Shown here: piece after piece, positions 1,566 through 31,892 of the stretch
How positions within the stretch are numbered: the stretch's first letter is position 1
Layout: every line of letters starts with the position of its first letter
Assembly: GCA_004431415.1 (NCBI GenBank)
Contig: QPMI01000608.1
Coordinates: 1-39,375 of the forward strand
DNA: 39,375 bases
Direction of reading: 5' to 3'
Source: Cyanophora paradoxa CCMP329
Taxonomy: Eukaryota > Plantae > Glaucophyta
Translations under genes and position numbers: made by a program
The notes under the pieces: model-generated
Databases searched by the model: none
What the model was told of the DNA's origin: nothing
Seen by the model: the letters and a program-made list of their open reading frames with translations, nothing else

Positions 1566-2244
1566 CTACTTCAGCTTTGGTGGCACCAGGTTCAATGGTT
1601 CCCTTTGGGTCTTTGTTTTCATTTCATCTACTGCCTGCTCATCGATTTGGTTCTCTTTCTTAGCAATAAACTGTTTATCTGGGACACCAGTGATACCCAT
1701 TTTGAATACTTCCTTTCGAAGCATCTCCTTTAGCTTGGCTCTCTCTTTCTTCTCAGTAACATACTGCTCCAAGGCACTTGATTTGGCTTCCAGATCTTTG
1801 AGTTTAGCAGTCATCTCATCCCATTGAGCTTTGGGAATTCGATGAATATTTTGAGTGGGAGCAGTCTTATATGTGACTTCACCAGCCATAGACTGGATTA
1901 CCTTGTCTGATTCCTTACTAAGACCTTCACCTTTGCGAGCCAGTGAAAGATCTTGCAAGCCTAAACCTTTATCATCAGCAGCACCAATAATTCGCCTGGC
2001 ACCCTCAGCAACAGCTTTCATTTTGAGGCTTCTGGTGAGATGTTGAGTTGGTCAGCAGTTGAAGCTGTGGGGCTTTGTCATCGACTGATTCCTCATAGGC
2101 AGCATTGAGGGGTCTTCTTGTTGTGAGGGCTTTATCATTCATACCATTGAATTTCATTGGTTCAGTGTTAATGGATCCATTGTTTCCACCACCTGAATAG
2201 CCAACAGCCCCAGCTGGGATCCCTATTTTTCGTTTGGGAGGCAT
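1566..2244 (-). CDS. Hypothetical basic/coiled-coil viral protein, frameshifted near 2010-2065
   Basis: ORFs 2005-2244 (starts MPPKRK, NLS-like) and 1566-2021 overlap and join if indels are allowed. TAATAAAG lies just upstream of the ATG. Confidence 0.55.
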
Positions 2245-2272
2245 TGTATCTTTATTAGAATGAGAGATAATT

Positions 2273-3022
2273 TTATAAACCGCGTTTATATCGCATCAAT
2301 TTATTGCTATGGACTTGGCTTTTCACTTCTTTGGGGGCTTCCTCTTTCTCTGGTGGTTTCAGTTCATCTTCTTTCTTTTTTGGCTTCCTGTGGAAGCGAG
2401 GAAAATCGAAATCTCCAACTAAATCGGCTTTATCGACATAGTATTTAACTTAGTAGTTTGCAGAGGACCAAACGATATGATAGGAGTGAACATACTCTTC
2501 AAACATTTGTAGAAATCCTCTTTTTTCGCATTATATTGTATTCTTCCTCTATGGCTTCAAGTTCTTTTGCGATTAGCAGCACAAAACATAATCATAATTC
2601 AGAATTACACTTGAACTTTCGAATTTCTGAGAGATAGATAATGGATATTTTCGAATGGCGCCTCTGGAATACAAGATCCATTTTTATCTCCTGAGATCGA
2701 CTTCATTTCTATCATTAAATCATCTAAAACACCACATATGGTTAAGGTTCACCCTTTTCTCTTTCTCTCTCTTAAATTTGCAATGTAAGGGATCCCATGC
2801 ACCCAGTTGAACTGTAGCAGCTTTGTCCCAAAAATGTGAAAATGAGGTAGCGGATATAATAAGTGTTGTATCAATCTTTTTGGCATCATGCAGCTGTTTC
2901 AAATAATATTTTACAGCTTCAGTCTTCCCACATCCTGATTTCCCAAGTATGAGTAGTCGGAAAGGGGGTTCTATCATTTCACCAGCCACAAATTCCTCCA
3001 GTTCAGAACTTGGTATAGGCAT
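2273..3022 (-). CDS. A32/FtsK-HerA-type genome packaging ATPase, frameshifted
   Basis: Walker A LILGKSGCGKT is in the listed ORF. In other frames downstream are Walker B (VLDDL, about 2735-2720), MDLVFQRRHSKISII (the family's RH motif), SQKF...NYDYVL and a charged tail ending at TAA 2275-2273. Total about 250 codons, adjacent to the capsid gene. Confidence 0.85.
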
Positions 3023-5542: not shown

Positions 5543-6475
5543 ATGAACCGGCTCGTTAATATTGATAGCAGGGATAGAAGCCAAGGACAAAATGAAAACT
5601 CTTACAGGGTCACCCTCACAACTCCAGTAGAGAGACCAAGGGAATGCAGGGTTCTATATGCAGAGATTCCAAACAGCATCTATAACAGTGTGGGAACTGA
5701 TCATCTAACAGTTCAGTTTAATTACCAAGATGGTTCATATAACCAAGTGATCACACAACAAGTGTATCCCCTTCCCAGTGGCTACATCAATCAGGGTCAT
5801 TTTGGGGTAACACACCCTTATAATTATGGGCTGAACTATTCAAGCTTCCAAACCATTGCAGATAAAACTGTGTTTTTTGAGTTCAAGATATTCTACAATC
5901 CAACTACCTATAAAGTGGAGTTTTACAGTAACCATGAGTTTCGTTTTATTGCAAGCAACCAGAGAATAGGAAAGCTTTTGGGTGTAAGTTCTACTGAATA
6001 CACCACTGGGTATTATAGCACTCCTCCTGTTGGTGGATCTCCATATCGACCTGAGAACCTTTTAAAGTATGATGGTAAACCTATTACACCTGATCACCCA
6101 GCATGGGGAATCACCTTCTCAGGACCCAGACTCTCCTCAAAGCCCTTGCAGTATTATTTTGACAGCAGGAAGATGTCTGATATGAATGCTGAGCAGTATC
6201 TGTACATGCATATTAAAGAGCTAGCCCCCTTTGCCAGCAGACACAATATAATTCCGAAATCGCAACCACATAACCAGGGGGCTATCCTTAGATTACAATT
6301 GAGTAAGGATATAGGTGGCTATGTTTACCATAGTGGTGAGCATGCAGAATTCATTCAGATAAATGACAGAAACCTGGTGATAAGGGAACTCACAGTTGAG
6401 TTTAAAGATTACTTTGGTGAACTGATTGATATGAATGGAATCGATAATTCTTTTCAGTTGGAGTTTATCGAATAA
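5543..6475 (+). CDS. Minor capsid (penton-like) protein 2, 310 aa
   Basis: LVNIDSRDR start, VLYAEIPNSIYN, IGKLLG, YLYMHIKEL and ELTVEFKDYFGELIDMNGIDNSFQLEF are typical of minor capsid proteins of PLVs and NCLDVs. Confidence 0.85.
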   Translation: MNRLVNIDSRDRSQGQNENSYRVTLTTPVERPRECRVLYAEIPNSIYNSVGTDHLTVQFNYQDGSYNQVITQQVYPLPSGYINQGHFGVTHPYNYGLNYSSFQTIADKTVFFEFKIFYNPTTYKVEFYSNHEFRFIASNQRIGKLLGVSSTEYTTGYYSTPPVGGSPYRPENLLKYDGKPITPDHPAWGITFSGPRLSSKPLQYYFDSRKMSDMNAEQYLYMHIKELAPFASRHNIIPKSQPHNQGAILRLQLSKDIGGYVYHSGEHAEFIQINDRNLVIRELTVEFKDYFGELIDMNGIDNSFQLEFIE

Positions 6476-8021
6476 AGGCACCTGTAAAGTCAACTCTCAT
6501 TGTGGGAGCATTCACATACACAAGGGGATAAATGCGAATATATTTAATTCTGAGAGAAAAACCTATGTAAAAAGCATCCTTGATGCTGAGAGGAAATCCA
6601 CTCAATAGAGCCACATCACCTGAGTTGTGAGCATTGTTAATGTTCTCACAGACATATATTTTGTTTTGCCCATCTGATCGAATAAAAGACCAGTTGATCC
6701 CATCAGTGGATGTTGCCACATTGAAAGTCTTAATAAAAGCATTGGTGTCCCCTGATCCATAGGCAATCACAGAAGAGAGTTCAAAAGTATATGGGAAAGC
6801 AACTTGAAGGTATTCAGTGGGGGTTTCCCATATCTGCTCAGGAGCATAGGCTCCAGCTTCCCAGCCAAATGCTGAAGGTCTAGCCATGAAAGGCTCTTTA
6901 CCAGTCACAGAGGATGAGGCAGTGAAGGCATCATCTGCAAGCTGATACCAATTAGCATCCAAAGGTGGTGATGTAGTGAGAGTGGATGAAATGTAAGCCT
7001 TTGAAGGGTTCTTTAGTTCATAGTTTGCTACTAGTAGGCTGCAAAGCTTATTGATCATATCATTGTTTGCTGCAATGTAGGTTTCTGTGAAAGAAAGCAT
7101 ATCTGGGATTTTAGAAGTGTCATCAAGGGAGCTAACTATATGGTTTGGAAGAGGGACCGATAGCCTATAGTATCTCCCATAATCCTGATCATAGTTGTAG
7201 GGTAAAAGCTCCTCCATTTTATCAAGGGCAGAAAGCTCACTTGCAGCCATGAGCATGTTAATCAATGGGCTTCCATCTGTTGAGGCAATCCATGAGAGAA
7301 TGCCCCAGCTGTTTACAGTCTCATAAGCATAACCCACATAATCAGACTCTAAATGTGGGTCCACCTCACCACAAGAGATGCTTATTACTATAATGTCATC
7401 ATCATCACTGTAAATCTTCTTTGCATGGCTGTAACCACACACACTGGGATTATTGTTTCCCGAAATGGCACCATCAATGAGACAGACATATACTCCCCTA
7501 TTGAAATCAACAATGCTTACAGGAGAGAAATATGTAGGAGCAGCAGAAGTAGCCCTAGCAGCAATCTTACAAGGCATAAAGTTGTAATTGTTGTCATTTG
7601 TGATAAATATTGGTTTCATATTCTGAGTATCAAAGGATGTGATCACAATGTCCTTAAGGGAATCCTGTATTAGTGATTCACCAGTAACTGAATTGATTGC
7701 AGTCTCCAAGGGTCCCACATCATACTTTGTGTTAAATAGGGCATTTTCAATGATATTTCGAGGATTTGCGAAAATCAAGGGCAGTTGAGTTAGGTAAATA
7801 TTGTGTAAATCGTTTGCTGTCAGTTTAGGTTCACCTGGTTTATCAGGATGCCTGATGTTTAACCCAATAGCAATGATCCCACCAGTGGAAGTTCCACTCA
7901 CAAGATCCACAAGATCGATTATTCTCCTGCCAGTTCGATTTTCGATTTCTTTGAGCAGCCTGGTTATGATAATGCCCCTTGCACCCCCGCCAGAAAGACT
8001 TAAAACGACCTTGAGAGGCAT
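6465..8021 (-). CDS. Patatin-like phospholipase fused to a C-terminal discoidin (F5/8 type C) domain, 518 aa
   Basis: GGGARG oxyanion motif, GTSTG nucleophile elbow, SAAPTYF and DGA catalytic Asp. The C-terminal FTASSS..W..EYLQV..KTFNVATSTDGINW..KYIRIYP..MRVDF fits the discoidin pattern. Confidence 0.92.
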   Translation of the reverse strand: MPLKVVLSLSGGGARGIIITRLLKEIENRTGRRIIDLVDLVSGTSTGGIIAIGLNIRHPDKPGEPKLTANDLHNIYLTQLPLIFANPRNIIENALFNTKYDVGPLETAINSVTGESLIQDSLKDIVITSFDTQNMKPIFITNDNNYNFMPCKIAARATSAAPTYFSPVSIVDFNRGVYVCLIDGAISGNNNPSVCGYSHAKKIYSDDDDIIVISISCGEVDPHLESDYVGYAYETVNSWGILSWIASTDGSPLINMLMAASELSALDKMEELLPYNYDQDYGRYYRLSVPLPNHIVSSLDDTSKIPDMLSFTETYIAANNDMINKLCSLLVANYELKNPSKAYISSTLTTSPPLDANWYQLADDAFTASSSVTGKEPFMARPSAFGWEAGAYAPEQIWETPTEYLQVAFPYTFELSSVIAYGSGDTNAFIKTFNVATSTDGINWSFIRSDGQNKIYVCENINNAHNSGDVALLSGFPLSIKDAFYIGFSLRIKYIRIYPLVYVNAPTMRVDFTGAFIR

Positions 8022-8064
8022 CTTTTACTTATCAGGAATTTTATAAATCCCTATAGTAAAAGCC
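8022..8064. promoter_or_regulatory. Compact bidirectional promoter/initiator with inverted AGTAAAAG motifs
   Basis: CTTTTACT (8022-8029) and AGTAAAAG (8055-8062) are exact reverse complements, each 0-2 nt from a divergent ATG. Related (A/G)TAAAAG motifs precede other viral starts. Confidence 0.6.
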
Positions 8065-11000
8065 ATGAGCTTCAATTACCCACCCAATCTAGAAACCATT
8101 CAAGATGATAATGCAAGCAGCACCAAGCATGTGAACTTTGATAATATTAAAGTAAAGGGTTCAGTTTCAATTGACCACAGCTCTGATAATTCATCAAAGA
8201 CTCAATCAAGGGAGCATGCTTTATCTGTGAATCAAACCGATCCAGATAAAGAGGATGTCAGTGTTGCTTTTAGTTTGGGTAATGTGAAAGCAAACCAAGT
8301 GGCAGAGATCAAAGCCACCAGAAGGAGACCTAGGAAACTGAAAACCAGTGGCACTCACCCAGATATACCTTCCAGGTTCGATAGTGGTCGATTGATTTTC
8401 AATGTTCAAGATGAGCAGGGCAAACAGAACACAGCTTTACGAATTTACAATGAGGGCAGCACTGCAAAAGCTGAGGTCCCCCAAGTATTGCAAGTGGGTC
8501 CCATTGCCAATACAAATCAGGTCTCCTACACAAATGATGTCTACCCCAAGGATATTACATATGACTTTGCAAGAAATGAGCCTTTTGGGTTCTTTACTCC
8601 AAAAGATGTCCATCAAAAAAAGCCATCAATTACAATCAACAGTAGCCCCAGTCAACCAGTAGCAATCCATTTGCATCCTGATTTAGTCGAAATGGATAGG
8701 CACCTTTTGCCTTTGTATAGCAATGTGAAAGACCTTGGAATTCGAACCAGGCAATGGCGAAATATCCATGGCAGTAATGTGTATGCAAATGGTGAGAAGC
8801 TTGTTAGTGAGAAAACCCTAAGAGAAATCATTGAGCATTATGGTCCCAATGGACCTACTGTCCCATTCCCTATTCCATTTCCCAATGGACCACCCGATTT
8901 AACACCAAAGAAGCAGCCTGGAAGAGAATACACAGCAACTGAAGATGTAGCCTTTGGGCAGCATATTGTTAGTTGGGAGCAAGTTCGCAATAAACCTATA
9001 ATTGAACCCAGAAAGCAAATAGATGAGCAGTATTTACCTCCTGAAGTCGATATATTAGAGCTTGATGAATATCAATTCGTTCCAGATGAGGAAGAATATT
9101 TACCAGATGGTTTTGACCCACAAGAATATGAATATGATCAGTTTGACCCCAATGAGGAGGAAATATTGCCCGATGGCTTAGATCCACAAGAGTTTGAGTA
9201 TGAGCAGAACTATGAACCTGATGAGGAGTATTTACCAGATGGTCATGATCCACCAGCTGTTGACTATGAGCAACCTTATGAACCCCATGAGGAATTGTTA
9301 CCAGATGGATTTCGACCTGAGATCTGGGAGTTCTTTCCTGATTATGAACAAATTAATAATAAACCTGCAAAGTATCCCCCAGAGGATCACAATCATGATT
9401 GGGATGAGATCTTAGGCAAACCTCAGAAGTATCCACCAGAGGATCACAGGCATGATTGGGGTGAAATTGATGGGATACCTGCTGAGTTTCCACCAAGCAA
9501 ACATGAACACACTTGGGATGAGATCAATGACCAACCAGAATTCGCAAAGGTGGAGCCTCTTGATAACTTGGGGGTTTCTCTTTACCAGACTTGTAATGTC
9601 CCTGAAAGGATTTTTTTGAACGAACACTATGTTCATGTGAATGGGACACTTGCAAATTCAGCTATGAGAGGACCACTTCATATTAGGACATTACCAGGCT
9701 CTTTTGAAACCCCACCTGAACCAGGAGCAACCATACCAAATATCTTTGTGTCAAGCTACATGGAGGCTGACATTCCCACAGATACATTCAGAGTCCCAAC
9801 AGACCCAGCAACCTACCAAAATTACAACGCTGCTATACAGGTTCATGTAGCAGATGTAAGCAGTTTAGATGGCTCAAGACCAATGATAGTATTCAGCAGA
9901 GATAAATATTCTTACATTCCCATAGTGGGAACTGCAAATGATAATTATGGGAGGGCAGAGCTTGCATGGATTAAAACAGATTATGGTGGGGTTCTGGAAG
10001 CCAATCAGAGGATGGCTGCAAAAAACATACACAATGAAAATATTTCGAGAGTGGTCACAGAGGATTACCTTACTGCTGTTGTTCTTGTGAATATAGTCAC
10101 CCTTGCTATGCTTGCAAATTATGTAACGAAAAATGAACTTGCTCTTGAATTATCAAAGTATCTTCTCAAAACAGGTGGGACAATCACAGGGGACCTTACT
10201 GTTACCAGTAACCTTTACACAAGTAACCTTTATGCAAGCAATATAACGGTCGATTTTCTTACTGTTACATCTAATGCAAACCTCCCACATCATCCAACTT
10301 CAAATGTTGTGGAAGGGTGGATCAGAAACCATACTCACACCAAAGACCAAATTTTAGACTTTGATCACACACATGCCTGGTCAAATATTGTGGACAAACC
10401 ATTGACTTTTCCCCCAGATGATCACACCCATGCCTGGTCAAATATTTTCGACAGGCCCCTAACCTTCCCTCCTGATATTCACACTCATGATTATACCCAG
10501 ATCACCAACTGCAATCACAGACATCCTTGGAATGAAATAGATGAACAACCAGTGTTTGCACAATTAAATGCAATCGGAAATGTTTTTAATGGAGTCACAC
10601 TTTACCAATCGAGTAATACACCTGAAAGATTGTATTTGAATGATCATTATGTTAGTCTCAATGGGACTTTTACAGGTCAAACAGGCACTCCAATGGAGGG
10701 AACTCTTGCAGTAAGATTACCCAGGGATCCAATCGTAAATGGAGTTTATGATGGTGATTTTAATGTAGGAGTAAATGATACTTTCCCCAGTATCTATGTT
10801 ACAAATTATCACCCAGGTGAAACAGGACAAGTAGCCGATTTTTCAGCAGCTATTCAAATAAACGTTACAGATCAAAGCGCATATGATGGAGCAAGACCTA
10901 AAATAGTATTCACAAGGGAGAAAGTTGTAAACTATCTTCCCGTTGCGGGACAACCCACAGATGATCACGGTAAATGTGAGATGGCGTGGATAAAAACAAC

Positions 11001-13530
11001 ATCAGGTGGCGCCTTAGAAGTCAATCAGAGGATGGCGGCGAAAAACTTACACAATACAACCCTTTCAGGTGTCGTTACAGATGATTACCTAACCAATAAA
11101 GGATATCTTACGACCGCGGATTTAAGCAGTTACACAACGGATGCAGAATTAACAACGGCTCTTGCGAATTATTTACCTCTTACAGGTGGGACAGTTAATG
11201 GAACTGTAAACGCTACTAGTCTACAAATTGGTGGAAACACAATTCCAAAAGGATATGATTTCGATCAATTAGATGTAGTATCAACAGATAGAAGCGCAAA
11301 TAATTGGAATTTGAATTGGTCACCAAGAACAGGACAAACAGGATGTTATACTACACCAGCAAATGATGAAGATTGCAGCGGTTGTTGGATGCGTTGGACA
11401 ATTCCAGAAGGTATGAAATCATTTTATATTCAGCATATGCCTTGGTATAATGGCAGATATTTTGATATCTATGGTCAGACTCTCAATAACAATCAGCATT
11501 TCTTAAAACGTGTAAACGATTATCAAGGAATACAGTCAGTAAATCATGATGGGACAAATAATACTATCTTGTTTGTATCAATTAATTGCGAGTTTTACAA
11601 GTATATTTATGTTCAAGGGCGAATAGGTCGCATTCATCTTACAGGGGTTTTCGGTTGGAGCAGACAGAGGGCAACAGATAATGATGTTGGTTTAGTTCAT
11701 TATGATAATATTGCTTTCAAACCAGATGTAGGCAAATATACAGAGTTTGATGTTGTGAGTGGTTACAATAGCGCAGGTGTTGAATTTGTAGGGTCTTGGG
11801 ACACGAATTGGAAACCTACATCAGATAACCCGGTTGCAGGATTTTACAGCATTGTAACTGATGATGAAACCAGCGGTGACTATATGCAGATCTTAGTTCC
11901 AACAGGAATGAAAACTTGTCACGTCCAATATTTCTGTTGGACGAATTGTAGATATTTTGATATAGGAGGTTATCGAAACAATAGATGGAATCACATTATG
12001 AGAGTGAATACTTATCAAAATGCAGGAAATACATATGCAGATTCACTTTGGCATGAAGGTTTAACATGGACTTCATTCTTTTGTGGGAATTTCTCATATA
12101 TTAGATTTGTTGCGAGAAAAGGGCGTTGTCATATTGGAATGCTTGGATGGACAAAAGAGGTAGGAAGAACAGCACCAGCAAATGGTATGATAAGTTGGGA
12201 TAATGTTTATAGCAAACCGTCATTTTATTCAGCCGCAGACCTTCCACAAACAGCGACATGGCCAACAAATACATGGTTAAAATCAACCGACACTGTTCCG
12301 CGAATTTGGTTTGGAAATGGTGATTGCACATATATTCGAGGTTATGGAAATGGTGCTGGTGTTTCAATTGAATTCAGAGACTCAGCAGATGGAGCAATAT
12401 TAAAGTCTTATAACAATGGTAACTTTTGGGTGAAAAACACTATTACAGCACCCACTATTAATGCTACTACCAAACTCCAAATAAATGGTAATGATATCCC
12501 AAAGTTTCACACAGCAGATAAAACAGTAGGAGGTATTGAATTTAATAGATGTTCTTATAACGATTGGGAGTGGGCGTGGAGTTCAGCATGGGATCCATCT
12601 TATAATTATGGTTCTTACGTTTATAATAAGCAATCGGATGATCAAACTTCTACCGCTTGGATTGACTTCGATATTCCAGAAGGATATCACACAGGAACAG
12701 CGTTTTTAACTTATTTACCTTGGGTTAGCTCACGACTTTTTGAAATTTGGGGAGTGAATCGACAAGGAAATGAAGTTTTTATAACATCAGTGAATAGTTA
12801 TCAACCATACTCCACATCTCCTGAAGGTAACCACAGTGGTTTAAATAATGTTCCTATACATCTTGGTAATCGATTCCTCACAATTCGGATTAGACCAAAG
12901 ATTGGAAGAGTTCACATTATGGGTATAAGTTACATGAAAATTTGGGTAGGAAATAGTTATGGTGGTCACACCGGCTATATTCATTGGAATAATGTTTATA
13001 GTAAACCAAATATCTTAACAGGAGCTGTGGAAACTTGGTTTAATTCCAGTGATGGATATAATCGAATTCATTTCGGTAACAATGGTTCTACATATTTGAA
13101 AGGAAGGGGAGATTATCCAATAAGATTTCGAAATGAATTAGATTCTGATATTTGTTGGATCGATCATAACGGGCGGATGTGGATAAACAATTATTTAACA
13201 CAAGGAAGTGACAGAAGATACAAAACAGATATTAAAAAGATAACCGGCGCTCTTTCAGCAATCGAAAAATTAGAAGGAGTGAGTTTTAAACGAATTGGGA
13301 GTGAAAAAGACGGAACAAAATTAGGTTTAATTGCGCAAGATGTAGAAAAGGTAATACCAGAAATTGTAAGTGTCACAAAAGAAGATGGTTACCTTTCTCT
13401 CGAATACACGGGTTTAATTCCAGTTCTCATAGAAGCCGTTAAAGAGTTATCTAAGAAATGCAAAGATTTAACACAAACATGTGAAAATCTCCAAAGTCAA
13501 ATAGATCAAATTAAAAATGTCACAGTATAA
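8065..13530 (+). CDS. Giant fibre / receptor-binding protein with C-terminal intramolecular chaperone (Peptidase_S74), 1821 aa
   Basis: HxHxW..I..KP phage-tail repeats, two YL..TGGT..G.(L/V) shaft motifs and three repeated beta-rich domains. GSDRRYKTDIKKI..AL..IEKLEGVSF..GLIAQDVEKVIPEIV..LEY.GLIPVLIEAVKEL plus a terminal coiled coil. Confidence 0.9.
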   Translation: MSFNYPPNLETIQDDNASSTKHVNFDNIKVKGSVSIDHSSDNSSKTQSREHALSVNQTDPDKEDVSVAFSLGNVKANQVAEIKATRRRPRKLKTSGTHPDIPSRFDSGRLIFNVQDEQGKQNTALRIYNEGSTAKAEVPQVLQVGPIANTNQVSYTNDVYPKDITYDFARNEPFGFFTPKDVHQKKPSITINSSPSQPVAIHLHPDLVEMDRHLLPLYSNVKDLGIRTRQWRNIHGSNVYANGEKLVSEKTLREIIEHYGPNGPTVPFPIPFPNGPPDLTPKKQPGREYTATEDVAFGQHIVSWEQVRNKPIIEPRKQIDEQYLPPEVDILELDEYQFVPDEEEYLPDGFDPQEYEYDQFDPNEEEILPDGLDPQEFEYEQNYEPDEEYLPDGHDPPAVDYEQPYEPHEELLPDGFRPEIWEFFPDYEQINNKPAKYPPEDHNHDWDEILGKPQKYPPEDHRHDWGEIDGIPAEFPPSKHEHTWDEINDQPEFAKVEPLDNLGVSLYQTCNVPERIFLNEHYVHVNGTLANSAMRGPLHIRTLPGSFETPPEPGATIPNIFVSSYMEADIPTDTFRVPTDPATYQNYNAAIQVHVADVSSLDGSRPMIVFSRDKYSYIPIVGTANDNYGRAELAWIKTDYGGVLEANQRMAAKNIHNENISRVVTEDYLTAVVLVNIVTLAMLANYVTKNELALELSKYLLKTGGTITGDLTVTSNLYTSNLYASNITVDFLTVTSNANLPHHPTSNVVEGWIRNHTHTKDQILDFDHTHAWSNIVDKPLTFPPDDHTHAWSNIFDRPLTFPPDIHTHDYTQITNCNHRHPWNEIDEQPVFAQLNAIGNVFNGVTLYQSSNTPERLYLNDHYVSLNGTFTGQTGTPMEGTLAVRLPRDPIVNGVYDGDFNVGVNDTFPSIYVTNYHPGETGQVADFSAAIQINVTDQSAYDGARPKIVFTREKVVNYLPVAGQPTDDHGKCEMAWIKTTSGGALEVNQRMAAKNLHNTTLSGVVTDDYLTNKGYLTTADLSSYTTDAELTTALANYLPLTGGTVNGTVNATSLQIGGNTIPKGYDFDQLDVVSTDRSANNWNLNWSPRTGQTGCYTTPANDEDCSGCWMRWTIPEGMKSFYIQHMPWYNGRYFDIYGQTLNNNQHFLKRVNDYQGIQSVNHDGTNNTILFVSINCEFYKYIYVQGRIGRIHLTGVFGWSRQRATDNDVGLVHYDNIAFKPDVGKYTEFDVVSGYNSAGVEFVGSWDTNWKPTSDNPVAGFYSIVTDDETSGDYMQILVPTGMKTCHVQYFCWTNCRYFDIGGYRNNRWNHIMRVNTYQNAGNTYADSLWHEGLTWTSFFCGNFSYIRFVARKGRCHIGMLGWTKEVGRTAPANGMISWDNVYSKPSFYSAADLPQTATWPTNTWLKSTDTVPRIWFGNGDCTYIRGYGNGAGVSIEFRDSADGAILKSYNNGNFWVKNTITAPTINATTKLQINGNDIPKFHTADKTVGGIEFNRCSYNDWEWAWSSAWDPSYNYGSYVYNKQSDDQTSTAWIDFDIPEGYHTGTAFLTYLPWVSSRLFEIWGVNRQGNEVFITSVNSYQPYSTSPEGNHSGLNNVPIHLGNRFLTIRIRPKIGRVHIMGISYMKIWVGNSYGGHTGYIHWNNVYSKPNILTGAVETWFNSSDGYNRIHFGNNGSTYLKGRGDYPIRFRNELDSDICWIDHNGRMWINNYLTQGSDRRYKTDIKKITGALSAIEKLEGVSFKRIGSEKDGTKLGLIAQDVEKVIPEIVSVTKEDGYLSLEYTGLIPVLIEAVKELSKKCKDLTQTCENLQSQIDQIKNVTV

Positions 13531-15911: not shown

Positions 15912-16310
15912 ATGGAGACTAAACACAGAGGCTTTCATGTTATGCTTGATTACAAGGCTAAATCAGCTATAGCAACAGGTTATGAGCATGTGAGCTTCCT
16001 AGGTAATTGGATTATGGGAACCCTTGAACAAGCAATATTGAGACAAGGTATTAGGATTGTTCATAAACACTGTGAGATATTTGATGGCAAACTATCACCT
16101 CCTGGTTTTGCATTGGTTCTGCTATTAGATGAAAGCCATTGTACAGCTCATTGTTATTCCAATGAAGGCATGTTAGCAATTGATATATTCAGTTGTGGTA
16201 AAGAAGCTCAGCATAAAACACAATCAGTAGCAGATGAGATCGATAAAACAATGAATTTCCTCACATTTGAGAAGACTGAGAGACATAAACATGATAGATT
16301 CCCGTTTTGA
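15912..16310 (+). CDS. speD: Prokaryotic-type S-adenosylmethionine decarboxylase proenzyme homologue, 132 aa
   Basis: G.HVMLD at the N-terminus, PPGFALVLLLDESHCTAHCY (E-S-H pyruvoyl self-cleavage site) and AIDIFSCG. Confidence 0.88.
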   Translation: METKHRGFHVMLDYKAKSAIATGYEHVSFLGNWIMGTLEQAILRQGIRIVHKHCEIFDGKLSPPGFALVLLLDESHCTAHCYSNEGMLAIDIFSCGKEAQHKTQSVADEIDKTMNFLTFEKTERHKHDRFPF

Positions 16311-16713
16311 TGGGTTTCTATAATGATAAACAGGGTAATTTACCTTTTTTATTACAATGGCAATCGTTAAAAAAGGATATAATATATCCTTTCCTACAAT
16401 AGCTTTCTACAATGATTTTCTTTCTACAGTAGCTTTTGTTACAATAGAATTCTACTGTATGATGTAGCCAAAATATGAATGCATCCTAAACCTACAAATG
16501 TAAGATTTCGAATACTATTCGATTTCATTACAGTAAAACTCAACATTCCCCTTGATTCCCCCTATTATAATTAAAGTGGACTCAAGGTTGACTCATATTA
16601 ATCGTAAAAGTAGTAAAAGTATATGGATTTTGTTACGAATTCAATGGGAGGGTTGACTAAGTGGGTTGAGTTGACTCAAATTTCACAGGAAATAACAATG
16701 AATCAGAGTATAA

Positions 16714-17182
16714 ATGCATTTTTTGAATCAACTACACCAACTAACACTGAGATTTTACCAATATATGAGGTCCTTACTGAATATGGTTTGTGTGACAGGT
16801 GTGACAGGTCTATCCCAAACTTTTCTATAGCATAAAAATGAACTCTCAAAAGTTTGGGATGGACCTGTCACACCTGTCACACTCGATTATTTCATTTGTT
16901 TATTCAAGTAGAATTACATAGATAAACTTCTTACTTATTGTTACTGAGTTTTTCATTATAAAAGAGATCCTTACTAAATATGGTTTGTGTGACAGGTGTG
17001 ACAGGATGCATTTTGTGAATCAACTACACCAACTAACACTGAGATTTTAACAATATATGAGGTCCTTACTGAATATGGTATGTGTGACAGGTGTGACAGG
17101 TCTATCCCAAACTTTTCTATAACATAAAAATGAACTATCAAAAGTTTGGGATAGACCTGTCACACCTGTCACACCCAATTAT
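16714..17182. repeat. Two ~170-bp direct repeats (period 292 bp), each ending in a 35-bp iteron palindrome, plus a half unit
   Basis: 16714-16882 matches 17006-17174. Stems are 16790-16824/16848-16882 (1 mismatch) and 17082-17116/17140-17174 (perfect), with 23-nt loops. A half unit lies at 16968-17005. Confidence 0.95.
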
Positions 17183-17425
17183 TTCAAAAATCCTAAGGGT
17201 CCCCCCTTAGAATCATTAAAACATGATAAAAACATATAAGTTTCATGTATAATTACGATTGGATTCAATAAGAGATCGATTTGTTTTATTTAACAAATGA
17301 ATCATTTATGGATCTTAATCGAGTTTAGCGATATATTTCCGATTAAATGAATTAAATTTAATTAAATTTAATCGAGAAAGTACATGAATATAATATCGAT
17401 TAAATCAATTAACAAACAGACCAAT

Positions 17426-17710
17426 CACACATAGTAAAATGCGGAGTTTTAACCAGAGGCAAGATCTAATTGAGATTCAGTTATATTATTCGGAAATATA
17501 TACAGATTATCGATAGACTCAGTAAGACTAATCGGAAAATAAGAGAAATTTACGATAAAATATCGAAAAGAATACAAAATAAACGAAATAAATGAATATT
17601 CGATAAGATATACACAGATTAACGATTGATTGAAATAGAATATACGAGATATATCAACAAAATCAATTAAGATAAGCCGAGGGTTAAAACTCCGCATTTT
17701 ACTATGTGTG
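17426..17710. repeat. Perfect 29-bp inverted repeat marking the element terminus
   Basis: CACACATAGTAAAATGCGGAGTTTTAACC (17426-17454) and its exact reverse complement (17682-17710), with a 227-bp AT-rich spacer. Host-like DNA begins at 17711. Confidence 0.95.
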
Positions 17711-18210
17711 TAGGATGCGCATCAAATTAAATTTGATCGCGAGCAGCGCTGCGAGTGAACGTTCAATCGGGGGCGCACATGTAGAAGCGAATGACCGCGT
17801 GATGGCCGCGAGCAGCGATATCGCCCAAAACTTTCTCGACGGGACCCCAGGCAAAGGAGTTCGGGCCAATGAAGACATCTGAGAGCGCGACATAGCTGAA
17901 CTCCAATGCCTGCGCAGCGGTCGCCGTTGGGCGAGAATTACGATCGAGGCTCTTCGGAAGCAAATTTAAAACGCACCCAGTCAGTCCCGGCAGCGTTCAA
18001 CTGCGGGTAGAAGGAAGTCCAGCCTGCAAAAAAGTTTTGATTTCGAATTTCACGTGCAGCGGCGATGGGAGCGCGGCTGCAATGCGACGCGAACGCACCT
18101 TTGAGCGGATTCGGGCCGCTGACGGGCTTGTATGTGAGGGGACCGCCAAAACAGGCGGCCGCGGCCGTGAAGAAGATCACAGCCGTGAGGAGGGAGCCGG
18201 AGCGGGCCAT
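17711..18210 (-). CDS. 5' exons of a host secreted DUF4832 / glycoside-hydrolase-like gene, interrupted by the viral insertion
   Basis: Splicing two GT-AG introns gives signal peptide MARSGSLLTAVIFFTAAAACFG, then NPLKG|WTSFYPQLNAAGTDW|ALEFSYVALSDVFIGPNSFAWGPVEKVLGDIAARGHHAVIRFY. This resembles the N-terminus of bacterial DUF4832 proteins. A third intron opens near 17778 and runs into the viral terminus. Confidence 0.68.
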
Positions 18211-18855
18211 TTCGAGAAAAGCTTCTTAGAAACTTGGAGAATTTCAAGATTCTCAGGGCGCGCAGTGCTGGCGCCGGAGACTTGCAATTGGCGGGAAATG
18301 GCTCGCCTTCGAGGCGACTGCGGGCGATTCGCGCATTAGAAACGCTGCGAATACACTTTTCCAGGCGCCACTGAAGCCCCCGGAGCGCCACGCGGGCGCC
18401 CGGCGAGCGCACCTTGCCGGCCTCGGAACGATTTGAAAGTGAGGACTGCGCGGGCCGTGGCGGGAGTCAGGCAGCAGGGGGGGAGGACCTGGAGGGGAGA
18501 GGAGACCAAAAGTAAAGCGCCCGACCCGGCCCGCGACCCCGCAGGGGGGGAGGGGAGAAACGCCAAGGGAAGAAATAGGCGGCATTTGCATGCATGCAAG
18601 GGGAGATATAGGGCTCGAGGAAATCAGATGAATTCAAGACTCGCGAGGGGATTCGAAGGATACGAATTAAGTGCTCCGAGTATAGACAAGCCAAGATCCG
18701 ATGATCCAGCTTTACTGGGGAATGAAGAAGAGATCGAAGGGCCCGCTGAGAATTAGCTATAGACAAGCCAAGATCCAGCTTGAAGAGGAGCTCGAGTAAA
18801 TCAGCGATCGCCCCGGCTCGCAAGAACCGAATTCAAGCACACGAGAGCTAGCGGG

Positions 18856-25455: not shown

Positions 25456-28249
25456 ATGGCGCGCCTTCCCGCGGCCGTTTTTGGCGCCCTGTGCCTGGCG
25501 CTCCTCGCAGCCTCCGCCGCGGCTCAGGCCCAACGCTACATCGTGGTCAGTATTTGAATCTCGTGCACTGCGAAGGCAGCTGCAGCGCCGCCCCTTGCCG
25601 GGGTTCTCGCCGCGGCTTATCGGAGGTTGCAGGTTTTCAAGGAGGGCGACGCCCCCCTCGCCCGCGCCTCGGCCGAGGCGCGCCGCGACCGCCAGGAGCG
25701 GTCGATGGGGACTCTCCACGGCCTCTCCCTCGCCGCCGGCCTCGAGAAGAACGTCCAGGTCGACTACGAGTACGGGAACGCCGTCTATGGATTCGCCGCC
25801 CGGTGCGCCGCCGCGCCGGCCGGCGCCATAGCATTGCATTTAGAACGCAGCAAGAGATTGAGAACTGTTACTCTGTCGATGAGGCCCAGCCGGCCGCGGG
25901 TTAGAGCTCTGTCGTCGTTTGATCATGATCTGCGCATGCCAATGATAACGCATGCATATGCGCATTTGACCGGCGTCGACCGCGCAGGATGCCGGAGCAG
26001 CTTGCCCAGCGGCTGCGTGAGAACCCCGAGGTCGCAATGGTCGAGGAGGACAAGGAGGCGCGCGCCCCGAATGCGGCGGCCTCTCCCGCCGTCGCCAAGC
26101 CGCGCGCTCTCTTACCGTCGCGGGGCGGACGACAGGTGACGATCAACCGCCCGACGGGAGGAGGCAGCACCTCGCCGCCGCCTTTCCCCTGGAACCTCGA
26201 CCGCGTCGACTCCGTGCGCGCCCTTCTGTTCAGCATGCGCACTAGCGCTGGATGCATGTGCCTGCAGCTGACCGAGGCCGCGCACGCGGGCCGCTTCGAA
26301 TTCAGATCGAGCGTGTGTATAACAGCCAGTACAACGTGTTCGCGGACGGCACCGGCGTCGAAGTGTACGTATACGCCGGCGCTGGCCTCCTCTTTGATGT
26401 CCGCACGCTTCTCTGATTGCTCACTATCCGCCGCGCTCGCAGCCACGTCCTCGACACCGGGTGAGGCCTCTCCCTTAAGCTTGCGCCCGCCGGCGCGCCG
26501 GCGCCGCTGACGAAGCCGGCGCAGCATCCGCACGACCCACTCGCAGTTCGGCGGCCGCGCCTTCGAGGGTCTCGACGGTGCTTCTCGTGTGCTAGGCCTT
26601 GCACTTGCGAGTAATCCGCGTACGCAGCGATCGGCGAGTCGCGCAGTTGCGGCGGAGGCCTTACGTCCTATGACTGCAACGGTGCTCCCGCGGCCGGGCC
26701 CGCCGAGTGCCGCGGCCCCGCCTTCTCCTCGCCCTGACTCGGGGATCCGGAGGGCACGGCACGCACTGCGCCGGCACCGTCGGCGGCATCACATTCGGCG
26801 CGGCGAAGAACGTCAAGCGTGCGCGACGCATTCGCCAGTTCTACATGCGCAGCTCATAATTAGAGGAGCCTTGACGCCTCTCGCCCCCAGTGTACGGCAC
26901 GAAGGTGCTCAACAAGCAAGGCTCTGGCACAGGCGTACGCGCTCCCCCCCCCTTTCCGCTCCGGCCTGGCGGCCGCGCGCGCGCGTGCTCTTTAATTCTG
27001 ATGTTGCGGGCGCCGGCAGTCTTCCCTCCTGGGCGGCATCGACTGGGTCGTCCAGCGCAAGCTGAACAACCCCACCGTCCCGATGGCGCGCCCCGTCAAA
27101 CTTTGAGCCGCGCCCCTCTTGATCTCGCTCGCGATTTGATCCCGGCCCGCGGCCGGCCGAGCAGGTCATGTCCATGAGCCTGGGCTTCTCTGGCATTTAC
27201 TCGCCCGTCGACACCGCCATCAACAAGTGCGGCCGACCGCGGGCCAGGCCGGCGCCGCGGCAGACGCGCGCGGGGCTGACACTGATCACCTCCCGCCGCA
27301 GTGCCGTGGCCGCCGGCATCGTCGCCGCCGTCGCCGCCGGCAACAGCAACATCGACGGTGCGCACGCGCCTCTCGACGCGTCCGACCGCCAAGATGATGG
27401 ACGCTCTTTTAATTTGGCGCCCGGTCAGCCTGCGGGGTCTCCCCTGCCGCGGCCACGAGCGCCATCGCCGTCGGAGCGACGGACAGCAGCGACAACGTGC
27501 GCTCCCGAGACCCCTGCCCCCGTACTTGTCTAGCGGGCCGATGCTGATCGCACGATGGCATCCACGCGCCCGCAGCGCGCCTCCTTCTCGAACTACGGCC
27601 CCTGCGTCGACATCTTCGCCCCGGTGAGTGCCCGTCGCGGCTGGGGGCGCGCCCCCTCTGGGTGTCGAGCCCACTCGAAGCCTGACGCCCGCTCTGCGCA
27701 TGCCCCAGGGCGTGAACATCCCGTCGGCGTGGTACACTTCGGACACGGCGACGAACACCATCTCGGGGACCTCGATGGCCACCCCGCTCGTCGCCGGCGT
27801 CTTCGCCCTCTACCTCTCGGCCAGCCCTGCCCCGCCCGCCCCGCCGCCGGCTACCTCTGATCATGATTTGAAGCTTTAATCTGCAGATGAACCCGGGGGC
27901 GACCCCCGCGGAGGCCCGGGCCTACGTCCTGGGGTACGCGGCCAAGGACAAGGTCATCAACGCGGTCAGCACGACCGTGAACGACCACATCATCTTCGCC
28001 GCCTTCCCGAGCCCGACGCCCGCCCCCGTCGGCACCACCTCGACCCTCGCCGTCGCCGTCGGCGCCGCCGGCTCCGCCCCGGCGGCGGCGGCCTCCTCGC
28101 CGGCCCTCTCGGCGGGCGCCATCGCCGGCATCGCCGGCGCCGCCGTCGGCGCCGTCGCCCTCGCCGCCGTCGCCGTCGCCGCCGTCCTCCTCCGCCGCCG
28201 CCGCGTCGCCGAGAAGGCCGCCCCGACCCAGAACGTCTGCATCGCCTGA
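25456..28249 (+). CDS. Subtilisin (S8A, proteinase K-like) protease with signal peptide, I9 prodomain and C-terminal transmembrane helix; copy A
   Basis: MARLPAAVFGALCLALLAASAAAQAQRYIV, WNLDRVD, HVLDTG, GHGTHCAG, SMSLG, VAAGN, ASFSNYGPCVDIFAP, SGTSMATP and AIAGIAGAAVGAVALAAVAVAAVLLRRRR, spread over many exons. Confidence 0.92.
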
Positions 28250-29049
28250 GCCCCGGAGCCCAGGGCCGGAAGCAGCAACGTACTGAGTATACGTATACCA
28301 TGTACAGCTGCAACGGATACCATGTTCCTGTACGTAGCGATATCGATAGGAGGCCGGTCGCGCCTGGCCACATAACATCTTTAATTTCACACAATACCTC
28401 CTTCCAGTCGTTTCTATTTTTACTTAGCTCGCACGGCGTAATTTCTCGCTTCGGCTCGATCAGGGATGTACGCTAATATATCTGATCATCGGATCGTGAT
28501 TTCGAATATACTGCCGCAGTGCCGGCCGTACACTCTAATTGACTGCAATTGGATGCCTGCATAGCGATCAGGGGGCTGCAAACGAGGCTAAGGTCTACAT
28601 CAAGACCGACAGCTACGAGGATGCTGGCCTCTGGGCGCCTCAAGGGACAGGGTGGGCGGGAACGCGAAATTGCGGCTCGGGCGCCGCACTTGTTTTGCCG
28701 CGAAAAACGGGTATGCTAGCTCAAGGCGACTTGGACCAAATTCGGACTGTAAAATAATTGAGGCTCGACTAGCCGACTCGCTAACCTCAGTAAATCTACT
28801 TTACTACCCATAAGCTTTATGTATCAATTTTCAGATCAGACCTCAATTGCAAGCTCCAGCACATAACAAGATTCAACCTAATCAGAAAGATCCGGATCCT
28901 CCTGCAGCCAACTAGCTTTAGTACTCGTAACAGGTAATTTGTAACTAGCTATAGCTATGCGCGCTGCCGCAGTAAATATACACAAGGAGGCACGGCCGGC
29001 CTCCGGAATCACACTCACGGCCCCCGGCTTCGGCCCCGGGCTCCGGGGC

Positions 29050-31892
29050 TTAGGCGATGCAGACGTTCTGGGTCGGGGCGGCCTTCTCGGCGACGCGGCG
29101 GCGGCGGAGGAGGACGGCGGCGACGGCGACGGCGGCGAGGGCGACGGCGCCGACGGCGGCGCCGGCGATGCCGGCGATGGCGCCCGCCGAGAGGGCCGGC
29201 GAGGAGGCCGCCGCCGCCGGGGCGGAGCCGGCCGCGGCGCCCACGTTCACGGCGCCAAGGGAGACAGAGAGGGTGGCGAGGGCGCCGGCACCAGCGTACG
29301 CGTCGGCCGAGTCGCGGGTGGCACTGGGGCTCGGGAAGGCGGCGAAGATGAGGTGGTCGTTGTCGCTCTGGGCGTCCCCGACCTTGTCCTTGGCGGCGGC
29401 CCCGAGGACGTAGGCTGCCGCTTCCGCCGGGGTCGCTCCCGGGTTCATCTGCGGAGCTTCCAGTCAGAGGTGGCCGGCGGCGGGGCGGGCGGGGCGGGGC
29501 TGGCCGAGAGGTAGAGGGCGAAGACGCCGGCGACGAGCGGGGTGGCCATCGAGGTCCCCGAGATGGTGTTCGTCGCCGTGTCCGACGAGTACCACGCCGA
29601 CGGGATGCTCACGCCCTGAGCGGCGACGATGGCGGGCCAGTCAGGCACATGCAGCGGGCTCGACTTCGACGACACAGACCACTCACCGGGGCGAAAATCT
29701 CGACGCAGGGGCCGAAGTTCGAGAAGGAGGCGCGCTGCGGGCGGCCGCGGGAAACGCATTAACGATACCGATGAACACGAGTTCGCGGCCGGCGCTCTGC
29801 GCGCGCTCGAGCGGCGCACAGTGTCCGTGCTATCCGTCGCGCCGACGGTGATGGCGTTGGCAGCGCGCGCCGGCGAGGAGTTGCAGGCTGCGGGTCGGGG
29901 CGGTTGGTGAGAGGGGCGATGAAGCCGACCGCGGAGGCAAGGAGCGAGGAAGACGCGCATGCACCGTCGCTGTTCTCGTTCCCTGCGGCGACGACGGCGA
30001 CGACGCCAGCGCGCACGGCCCTGCAGACGATGCGGGGATCAGCGGGGAGAGCGGCGGAGAGGCTGATCGCGAGCCCCGCCGGGCGGGGCCGCACGTGCTG
30101 ACGGCGGTGTCGATGGGCTCGTAGGCGCCCCCGCCCAGGCTCATCGAAATGACCTGCGGGGAGCTCGTGACCAGGCGGCGACGATGGAAAGAGGCGGATC
30201 CGGAGATCAAGAGGCGAGGCGCGCCATCGGGACGGCGGAATTGTTCTGCTTGCGGGCCGTCACCCAGTCGATGCCGGCGATGACGGAGGCCTGCCCGCAG
30301 CAAAGAACAGTGAGAGCTCGGGAGCTCACATCTGCCGAGGTGCGCGGGGCGGCGCACGAAGGAGCCAGCGCCGCGGCGGTTTAGGACCTTGGTGCCGATC
30401 ACTGCGCGCGACGGGCGTCAAGGACCCCTCGATCGCGAGGGCTGGACCGGATGCGGAGGGCTGGGTGCCGCCAGCGGGGCGCACGCTTGACATTCTTCGC
30501 AGCGCCGTAAGTGACGCCGCCGACTGTGCCGGCGCAGTGCGTGCCGTGCCCTACGGATCCCCGAGTCAGGGCGAGAAGGACGCGGGGGACGCGGTGCTCG
30601 GCGGGGGCACCGTGGCAGTCGTAGGTCGAGCAAGGCTCGCCGATGGCTGCGCGGATTCGGAGTTCGCAGGGTGCCGCGCAGACAGCTGTCGGGCCGGGCG
30701 CACCGTCGTAGCCCACGAAGGCGCGGCCGCCGAACTGCGAGTGCGTCGTGCGGATGCTGCGCCAGCGTCGTCAGCGGCGGCGTGGCGGCTGGCGCAACGG
30801 CGCTCGAGCTCGAGGCCTCACCCGGTGTCGAGGACGTGGCTGCGAGCGCGGCGGACAGGGAGCATTCAGCGAAGCGCGCGGGTATCAGAGAGGAGGCTAG
30901 CGCCGGCGTACACTTCGACGCCGGTGCCATCCGCGAACACGTTGTACTGGCCGTCATACACGCGCTCGATCTGAAGCGGCCCGCGTGCGCGGCCTCGGTC
31001 AGCTGCAGGCACATACATCCAGCGCTAGTGCGCATGCTGAACAGAAGGGCGCGCACGGAGTCGACGCGGTCGAGGTTCCAGGGGAAAGGCGGCGGCGAGG
31101 TGGTGCCTCCTCCCGTCGGGCGGTTGATCGTCACCTGTAAACGTAGCCCGCCCCCAGTCAGGATCTACGTGCAGAAGCGACTGCCGCATTTGGGGCGCGC
31201 GCCTCCTTGTCCTCCTCGACCATTGCGACCTCCTGGCTCTCCCGCAGCCGCTCGGCCAGATGGGCCGGCATCCTGCGCGATGCGAGAAACACCGACAGCG
31301 GTCATATCGCTGGATCTGCTGTGCTGGCTGTGCGCTCGATCATCATCGGATTCAAGCCCTTGAAGTGCGATGCACGTGTACGTGTACCCATGCCCCAGGT
31401 GCAACAGTGGCCGGCGCGCGGCCTGCGCCTGCAGCTGCAGCTGTAGCTGGTCCCGCCCTAGCTCTGGCCCTCGATGCGCACTGCGACACGTCGGCGTACC
31501 GGGCGCAAGTCCGTAGACGGCGTTCCCGTACTCGTAGTCGACCTGGACGCTCTTCTCGAGGCCGGCGGCGACAGCGAGGCCGCGGAATGCGTCCATAGAC
31601 CGCTTCTGATGCTCTGCACGCGCGAACGCCGAGGCGCCGGGGAGGGGCGCTCCGCCCTCCTTGAAAACCTGCGGGCGGCGCGGGAACGAATTAAATTCCA
31701 CTGCGAGCACGCGGCGCGGCCGGCGCGCGGTCTTGCTGAAAACGAGCGCATCCATGGCCATGCAAATAAAACGCGCACGACGATATATCGCTGTTCATGG
31801 GCCTGGGCCACGGCGGCGACGGAGACGAGCGCATGCGCGAGGCAGAGGGCCGCGAGGACGGCCGCGGGAAGGCGCGCCGCACGGAAGCGCAT
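29050..31892 (-). CDS. Subtilisin (S8A) protease with C-terminal transmembrane helix; copy B, inverted paralogue
   Basis: Same motifs and exon order on the minus strand (HVLDTG, GHGTHCAG, VAAGN, SGTSMATP), and an identical C-terminus ...VAEKAAPTQNVCIA. Confidence 0.9.

Follow-up and report, generated by a model that had tools for sequence, protein, structure and literature searches.

The window analysed here is the whole 39,375-nt stretch of contig QPMI01000608.1 from Cyanophora paradoxa CCMP329. Positions 1 to ~17700 have ~39% GC and the remainder ~73%. We identified viral genes in the low-GC part, together with a non-coding end that carries an inverted repeat (Table 1). The major capsid protein was called from language-model features with a recognition score of 1778, which is below 2300, and it showed no Pfam match. 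Its closest homolog, at 60% identity, was Cyanophora paradoxa P0001 in EukProt. Two relatives were found among 1.84 billion representatives, as was also the case for the 277-aa gene, and capsid-based locus searches of viral and metagenome contigs returned no relatives. A gene remnant at 1–480, which may resemble the C-terminus of a primase-helicase, gave blank results in the Pfam, homolog and Atlas searches. No pPolB, rve, protease or recombinase was found among the scanned ORFs of the window, the left part of the element lying outside it. The remnant (1–480) and the ATPase region (2050–3022) are split over several frames; since many host genes look frameshifted as well, assembly indels, rather than decay, are suggested for the broken viral genes. 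Within the host DNA, a subtilase (Peptidase_S8) gene is duplicated at 25629–28268 and 29031–31672, the two copies being inverted tail to tail, with segments that are 72–99% complementary.

Table 1 Coordinates of the viral genes, the features of the non-coding end and the first host bases in the window
Feature	Position	Strand	Remarks
A32-like packaging ATPase, N-terminal part	2720..3022	-	PF04665 E 0.0011, below cut-off, 100-aa fragment; frame broken in assembly
Major capsid protein, double-jelly-roll-like, 456 aa	3082..4452	-	Atlas features 0.97-0.98 to Capsid_NCLDV/Capsid_N clusters
Patatin and F5/8 (discoidin) fusion	6465..8021	-	Pfam
Fibre-like protein with S74 chaperone domain	8065..13530	+	PF13884 E 1e-15
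AdoMet decarboxylase	15912..16310	+	PF02675 E 5e-11; last gene before the non-coding end
Two 181-bp direct repeats	16714..17186	.	Each with a palindrome, 35-bp arms of 9-bp GTGTGACAG units
AT-rich, CpG-rich non-coding segment	17200..17426	.	Adjoins the inner arm in multiple copies
Inner arm	17427..17454	+	Repeats the terminal 28 bp exactly in inverted orientation, begins at the tip sequence ACACAT; boundary from contig ends
82-codon ORF	17449..17697	-	Starts at the outer-arm ATG and reaches the inner arm
Loop (spacer)	17455..17681	.	227 nt, 26% GC; outermost ~19 nt on each side are the decayed stem extension
Outer arm (element tip)	17682..17709	-	5'-ACACATAGT..., with a brief (AC)n reiteration; predicted site of integrase attachment
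First host bases, GTAGGA	17710..17715	+	From contig depth; 5-6 bp TSD predicted

In Table S6 of PMC12220804, from which we took the Glaucocystophyceae row (67 values matched to 67 headers), PF04665 is given for 139 of 156 Polinton-like viruses (PLVs), lipases for 89, rve for 85, AdoMetDC for 66, pPolB (PF03175) for 49, D5_N for 40, S74 for 37 and tyrosine recombinase for 0; neither integrase type was detected in 71. The accessible part of the same paper mentions patatin-discoidin fusions for Rhizaria and glaucophyte PLVs. The island in our window, with the GC contrast given above, is at least 17.7 kb long and occurs in multiple copies at varied sites, as do PLV islands of 14–40 kb, and a double-jelly-roll capsid was recognised by feature match. 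From its gene content and its match to the glaucophyte PLV profile, we conclude that the element is an endogenous PLV. It is present in multiple copies, and the inverted repeat, which is real, lies at its right end.

Comparison of the sequences showed that 17426–17454 and 17682–17710 are exact reverse complements with 227 nt between them, as the original prediction had stated, while in none of 300 Markov-resampled controls did a perfect inverted repeat exceed 15 nt. No further copy of the 29-mer, allowing up to 10 mismatches, was detected in the whole window. The exact arm was also absent from viral_contigs, and a 21-mer from metagenome_contigs. Past the perfect arm, complementarity continues imperfectly, out to 48 nt at 81%; the gap between the arms is 227 nt, or 189 nt if this decayed extension is counted. 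Of 1000 dinucleotide shuffles, 972 gave a poorer alignment than the two halves of the spacer. A palindrome spanning the whole loop was rejected, as an equally good score past 48 nt was obtained for 421 of 1000 shuffles. For the unit, the folding energy is -48 kcal/mol (z = -10.5), a stability reached by none of 200 shuffles, and the loop alone folds weakly (z -2.1 and -0.8).

To place the end of the element, we used contigs of public sequencing runs. The stretch is contained in 20 of the 23 listed runs, all of one organism; three runs of the same study contain next to none of its words. Four runs (X1, X4, X10 and X17) were covered over 16300–18700 and two of them (X4 and X17) over 17640–17770, with depths that are rough, being summed over contigs and subject to GC bias. 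Among the 16 contig pieces listed, of 148 in the latter two runs, 7 stop at 17709 and none at 17710; 4 stop at 17702 because of a one-base insertion variant, 3 stop elsewhere inside, and 2 continue into the flank of this copy. Summed depth at 17710 is at most 30–42% of its value at 17705–17709, and it falls from 61,004 at 17705–17709 to 127 from 17715 on in X4, and from 22,401 to 36 in X17, so single-copy depth is reached by 17715. As no listed piece ends at 17710 and the depth drops there, the last shared base is T17709 and the repeat is 28 bp long. G17710 probably belongs to the host flank, its match with C17426 being coincidental. Thus, the inverted repeat of the predicted 285-bp cassette stands, whereas its size does not: the contig ends give 283 bp with 28-bp arms.

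At least two other flanks, GC-rich and host-like, were found, one following 17711 in X4 and one following 17703 in X17; for most flank contigs the overlap is probably too short for placement, so that two is a minimum and no count of sites. Together with the return to single-copy depth, these flanks bear out the original prediction that the region is the terminus of an element. The host flank at 17773–18172 has a paralog at single-copy depth on a 685-nt contig, ~88–94% alike, in all four runs; the virus adjoins a low-copy host repeat.

The corrected tip reads ...ATGTGT, which is 5'-ACACAT or 5'-ACACATAGT on the other strand. Polinton termini are typically 5'-AG...CT-3'. Here most of the listed contigs stop at ...ATGTGT (17709) and one loose end stops after ...ACT (17703). 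It had been predicted that the end is not of the AG...CT type, which holds for the majority tip, and that it reads ...GTGTG, which does not hold; an AGT...ACT pair sits 6 nt inward of the tip, precisely where a single contig stops in one of the two runs. This loose end in X17, ...TTTTACT, is 6 nt shorter than the majority tip, has a canonical AG...CT end, and may be a junction deletion or a subfamily. At the corrected boundary the flanks are CCAATC and GTAGGA, still without a direct repeat, as had been noted for the uncorrected one. The shift to 17709 replaces the formerly proposed target-site duplication (TSD) candidate TAGGA(T) by GTAGG(A). A 5–6 bp TSD is predicted there from the rve-type TSD lengths in the accessible part of PMC12220804; the norms of terminal inverted repeats (TIRs) and of TSDs were taken from what is accessible of PMC12220804, PMC10120064 and PMC8547959. 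A GTAGGA target shared between copies, at which the start of a flank contig at 17686 in X4 and X10 hinted, was rejected; the starts differ in X1 and X17, and it was treated as error branching.

The tip is present at ~98–125 times the depth of the single-copy flank. In X17 the contig over 17674–17709 has a depth of 4517 compared to 36.4 for the flank contig (~124x), and the two variants over ~17650–17702 sum to ~98x of the flank in X4 and ~117x in X17. Just upstream of the inner arm, at 17414, the depth is 54–70x in all four runs, so that about 55–70 copy-equivalents connect the inner arm to the same upstream sequence, and at 16484, in the viral body, it is 28–49x. The ratio between these two positions (1.4–1.9 in 4 of 4 runs) fits what a TIR at both ends would give, and 17200–17426 probably lies inside a long TIR. 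In the run contigs, many variant sites among copies were seen in this region. No large step across the inner arm was observed in X17 (70x at 17414 and 78x at 17583), in which the depth climbs toward the tip from 70x to 124x; in X1, X4 and X10, unlike X17, summed depth rises 1.7–2.9x across the inner arm. Judging by this climb, the exact inner context could be missing from as many as about half of the tips. Subfamilies diverging toward the interior, or a minority of free units, may account for some of them.

Free units would be expected if the 283 bp were a MITE at the border of the virus, either independent or moved by the PLV integrase through its inner and outer ends. Its size and ends are indeed MITE-like, its composition is unlike that of the viral body, and summed depth is greater within it in 3 of 4 runs. 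On the other hand, the sequence that precedes the inner arm also reaches 54–70x and is equally AT-rich and CpG-rich, the flanks carry no direct repeat, and the depth in X17 stays level from one side of the inner arm to the other. Since the inner arm is multi-copy with the same upstream DNA, a free MITE is unlikely, and at this copy the unit does not stand alone with a TSD at both ends. We consider a border MITE very improbable, in agreement with the original prediction that this is no simple MITE insertion.

The motif AGTAAAATG is present in both arms and directed inward, which agrees with the predicted motif and ATG pointing into the spacer from each arm. AGTAAAA occurs within 20 nt before 3 of 14 start codons, compared to ~0.004 expected per gene for this post hoc choice of motif, and could be a genuine 5' element of the virus. 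Two inverted AGTAAAA, one before each ATG, were observed in the 43 bp that separate the divergent patatin and fibre genes (8022–8064). As to the arms, a frame of ~25 codons follows the ATG on the plus strand. The 82-codon ORF on the opposite strand was rejected as a gene: it is open in 2.6% of 5000 resampled spacers, has no Pfam match under E 0.05, and is shifted in about a third of the depth by a T inserted after 17672. It is probably not a gene, and probably no gene depends on the arms. Hence, of the putative promoter proposed originally, the association of a motif with start codons persists, but not a promoter in the arms, as the ATGs there open no recognisable gene.

It had also been proposed that the arms are paired recombinase sites or an invertible end. 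In this case, a site-specific recombinase would invert the spacer or excise the element, and the inverted 28-bp sites round a short spacer, with motifs facing inward, are what it would act on. Tyrosine recombinases, however, were counted in 0 of the 156 glaucophyte PLVs in Table S6 of PMC12220804, and none is encoded among the scanned ORFs of the window, which holds only part of the element. Moreover, the arms have no internal dyad symmetry, inversion would switch no gene, and no strand-changing joint was among those listed for the four runs or for the two, a search of low power in which contigs break at the arms. A recombinase is, accordingly, highly unlikely, although an enzyme of another type could conceivably act there, given the 71 of 156 PLVs in which neither integrase type was detected.

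The composition of the end is peculiar to it. On both sides of the inner arm CpG o/e is 2.1–2.5, compared to 0.36 in the viral body and 0.22 at 16400–17200. Over the terminal 510 bp as a whole (17200–17709) it exceeds 2, and in the rest of the virus it is 0.2–0.4. The loop (CpG o/e 2.5) carries 9 WW-CG sites, mostly at a spacing of 20–22 bp; 6 of its 8 CpG gaps fall in that range (p ~1e-4, post hoc), and a general tandem period was not detected (172 of 1000 shuffles). According to the accessible part of PMC12344493, 32% of CpGs in C. paradoxa are methylated, with repeats and viral genes among the methylated sequences, and it is because of this methylation that a CpG-rich tip on a CpG-poor virus deserves attention. 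Further inward, the GTGTGACAG palindromes are, by resemblance, candidate replication-origin iterons. A 75% copy lies 16 kb away at 497–629 (to ~635), just past the broken gene, and the palindrome is absent from viral_contigs. Related copies of it with other flanks occur as loose contig ends. Rfam gave 16 matches, all far under the gathering score and all in the palindromes at 16.8–17.2 kb, with none in the cassette.

Subterminal repeats are found in DNA transposons, and they offer a model for paired binding sites. Perhaps the arms are likewise outer and inner double-stranded binding sites for the integrase or for origin or terminal proteins, with the phased CpGs of the loop bending DNA or binding protein and no fold-back involved. 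The perfect conservation of the arms is consistent with this, as are the post hoc 20–22 bp spacing and the ACACA reiteration, which is compatible with protein priming as described in the accessible part of PMC4196379; pPolB, as noted, is listed for 49 of 156 glaucophyte PLVs. Binding sites would need neither a copy that reaches the last base of the tip nor a decayed 19-bp extension of complementarity, and we regard this reading as possible but rather unlikely.

Instead, we tentatively prefer, with slightly less than even confidence, that this is a conserved right PLV tip at which a terminal stem-loop within the TIR folds back to prime copying of the end, the arm doubling as the integrase site. 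Starting from what was observed (the arms, the position of the end, the many copies, the differing host flanks, an inner arm linked to viral DNA upstream of it, and viral genes), the proposed cycle would run as follows. The unit would lie in the TIR and be repeated at the left end. In the free linear genome, the 3' end would fold over the 227-nt loop, its terminal 28 nt would pair with the inner arm, and extension would proceed leftwards. A nick at 17426/17427 followed by fill-in would then yield the open arm-loop-arm end, the form seen integrated. Finally, an rve-type integrase would join the tip to host DNA with a TSD of 5–6 bp. Fold-back priming would account for two features: the inner copy begins precisely with the base of the tip, and base pairing, flawless at the 3' end, decays toward the loop. 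The 28 perfect base pairs and the ~19-bp decayed extension point to selection on a terminal stem. Terminal palindromes in the TIRs of rve-bearing, non-pPolB virophages and PLVs have been proposed as replication primers (bioRxiv 10.64898/2026.07.28.741278, in the part accessible).

Some observations count against fold-back: the weak folding of the loop, the rising depth toward the tip, the 1.7–2.9x step in summed depth across the inner arm in 3 of 4 runs, and the lack of a nicking enzyme among the ORFs of the window. The low-power search of the run contigs, which listed no strand-changing joint, likewise gave no sign of flipped loops. Polintons have 1–3 bp terminal repeats for protein priming, according to the accessible part of PMC4196379. 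The ACACA reiteration fits protein priming too, in which case a hairpin is not needed. The repeat could also be a functionless by-product, namely a one-off fold-back or template-switch duplication in the ancestor of the family that was inherited and gene-converted. Accidental annealing is offered as an alternative in the accessible text of bioRxiv 10.64898/2026.07.28.741278, and tips do vary, one X17 contig stopping at 17703 without the last 6 nt. With 28 perfect pairs set so sharply against 19 decayed ones, amid the many variant sites among copies, a by-product is quite improbable in our view.

The hairpin telomeres of parvoviruses and poxviruses provide fold-back ends that could self-prime, an AT-rich, incompletely paired loop, and flip and flop forms. 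In a stronger version of the fold-back proposal, which we consider unlikely, the PLV would have parvovirus-like hairpin telomeres in which the 227-nt loop is flipped at each end resolution, and the ~100 integrated ends in a single culturable alga would keep both flip and flop. If this is true, flip and flop counts would be the first direct sequence evidence of hairpin-primed replication in Polinton-like viruses. The same telomeres are named as analogues in the accessible text of bioRxiv 10.64898/2026.07.28.741278. For our element they are an analogy and imply no homology, and neither a nickase nor a resolvase was found in the window.

Compared to other glaucophyte and C. paradoxa PLVs (PMC12220804), the element shares a probable A32 ATPase, the patatin-discoidin fusion, the S74 fibre, AdoMetDC and the low-GC island; the accessible part of that paper describes no inner TIR structure. 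With Polintons/Mavericks, as far as PMC4196379 is accessible, it shares a short terminal dinucleotide reiteration, a probable long TIR and the AGT...ACT pair 6 nt inside the tip, but it differs in its 5'-AC..GT-3' tip and in having no pPolB, rve or protease in the part within the window. Polintons/Mavericks in the strict sense carry genes for pPolB and an rve integrase and have a 6-bp TSD. In the literature we found no long-loop inverted repeat in a PLV TIR, although preprint supplements may list cases; the accessible parts of PMC6431247 and bioRxiv 2026.06.19.733378 hold nothing on tips.

The closest parallel is Halocafeteria seosinensis, for which the accessible part of bioRxiv 10.64898/2026.07.28.741278 reports palindromes in TIRs beside TSDs, in virophage subtypes 1, 2, 5 and 6 as well as PLV subtype 4. 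They are enriched with non-pPolB replicases, and the hairpin priming linked there to the rve integrase is a proposed role. In both cases the self-complementary tip of an endogenous capsid-encoding element adjoins host DNA. The Halocafeteria palindrome, however, has 52 nt and is contiguous (gap of at most 10 nt), whereas 28-bp arms here enclose a 227-nt AT-rich loop with phased CpGs; with its gap limit of 10, the screen of that preprint would therefore miss such a loop. Screens limited to short gaps would undercount ends of this kind. The conserved PLV end structure is real and its function is putative. Terminal palindromes with a proposed priming role were already known from the 2026 preprint, and what is new is the 227-nt loop with CpGs ~21 bp apart. 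Flanked by identical arms, a long asymmetric loop keeps a record of its own orientation, something short palindromes do poorly, and hairpin priming is therefore testable in this family from existing long reads.
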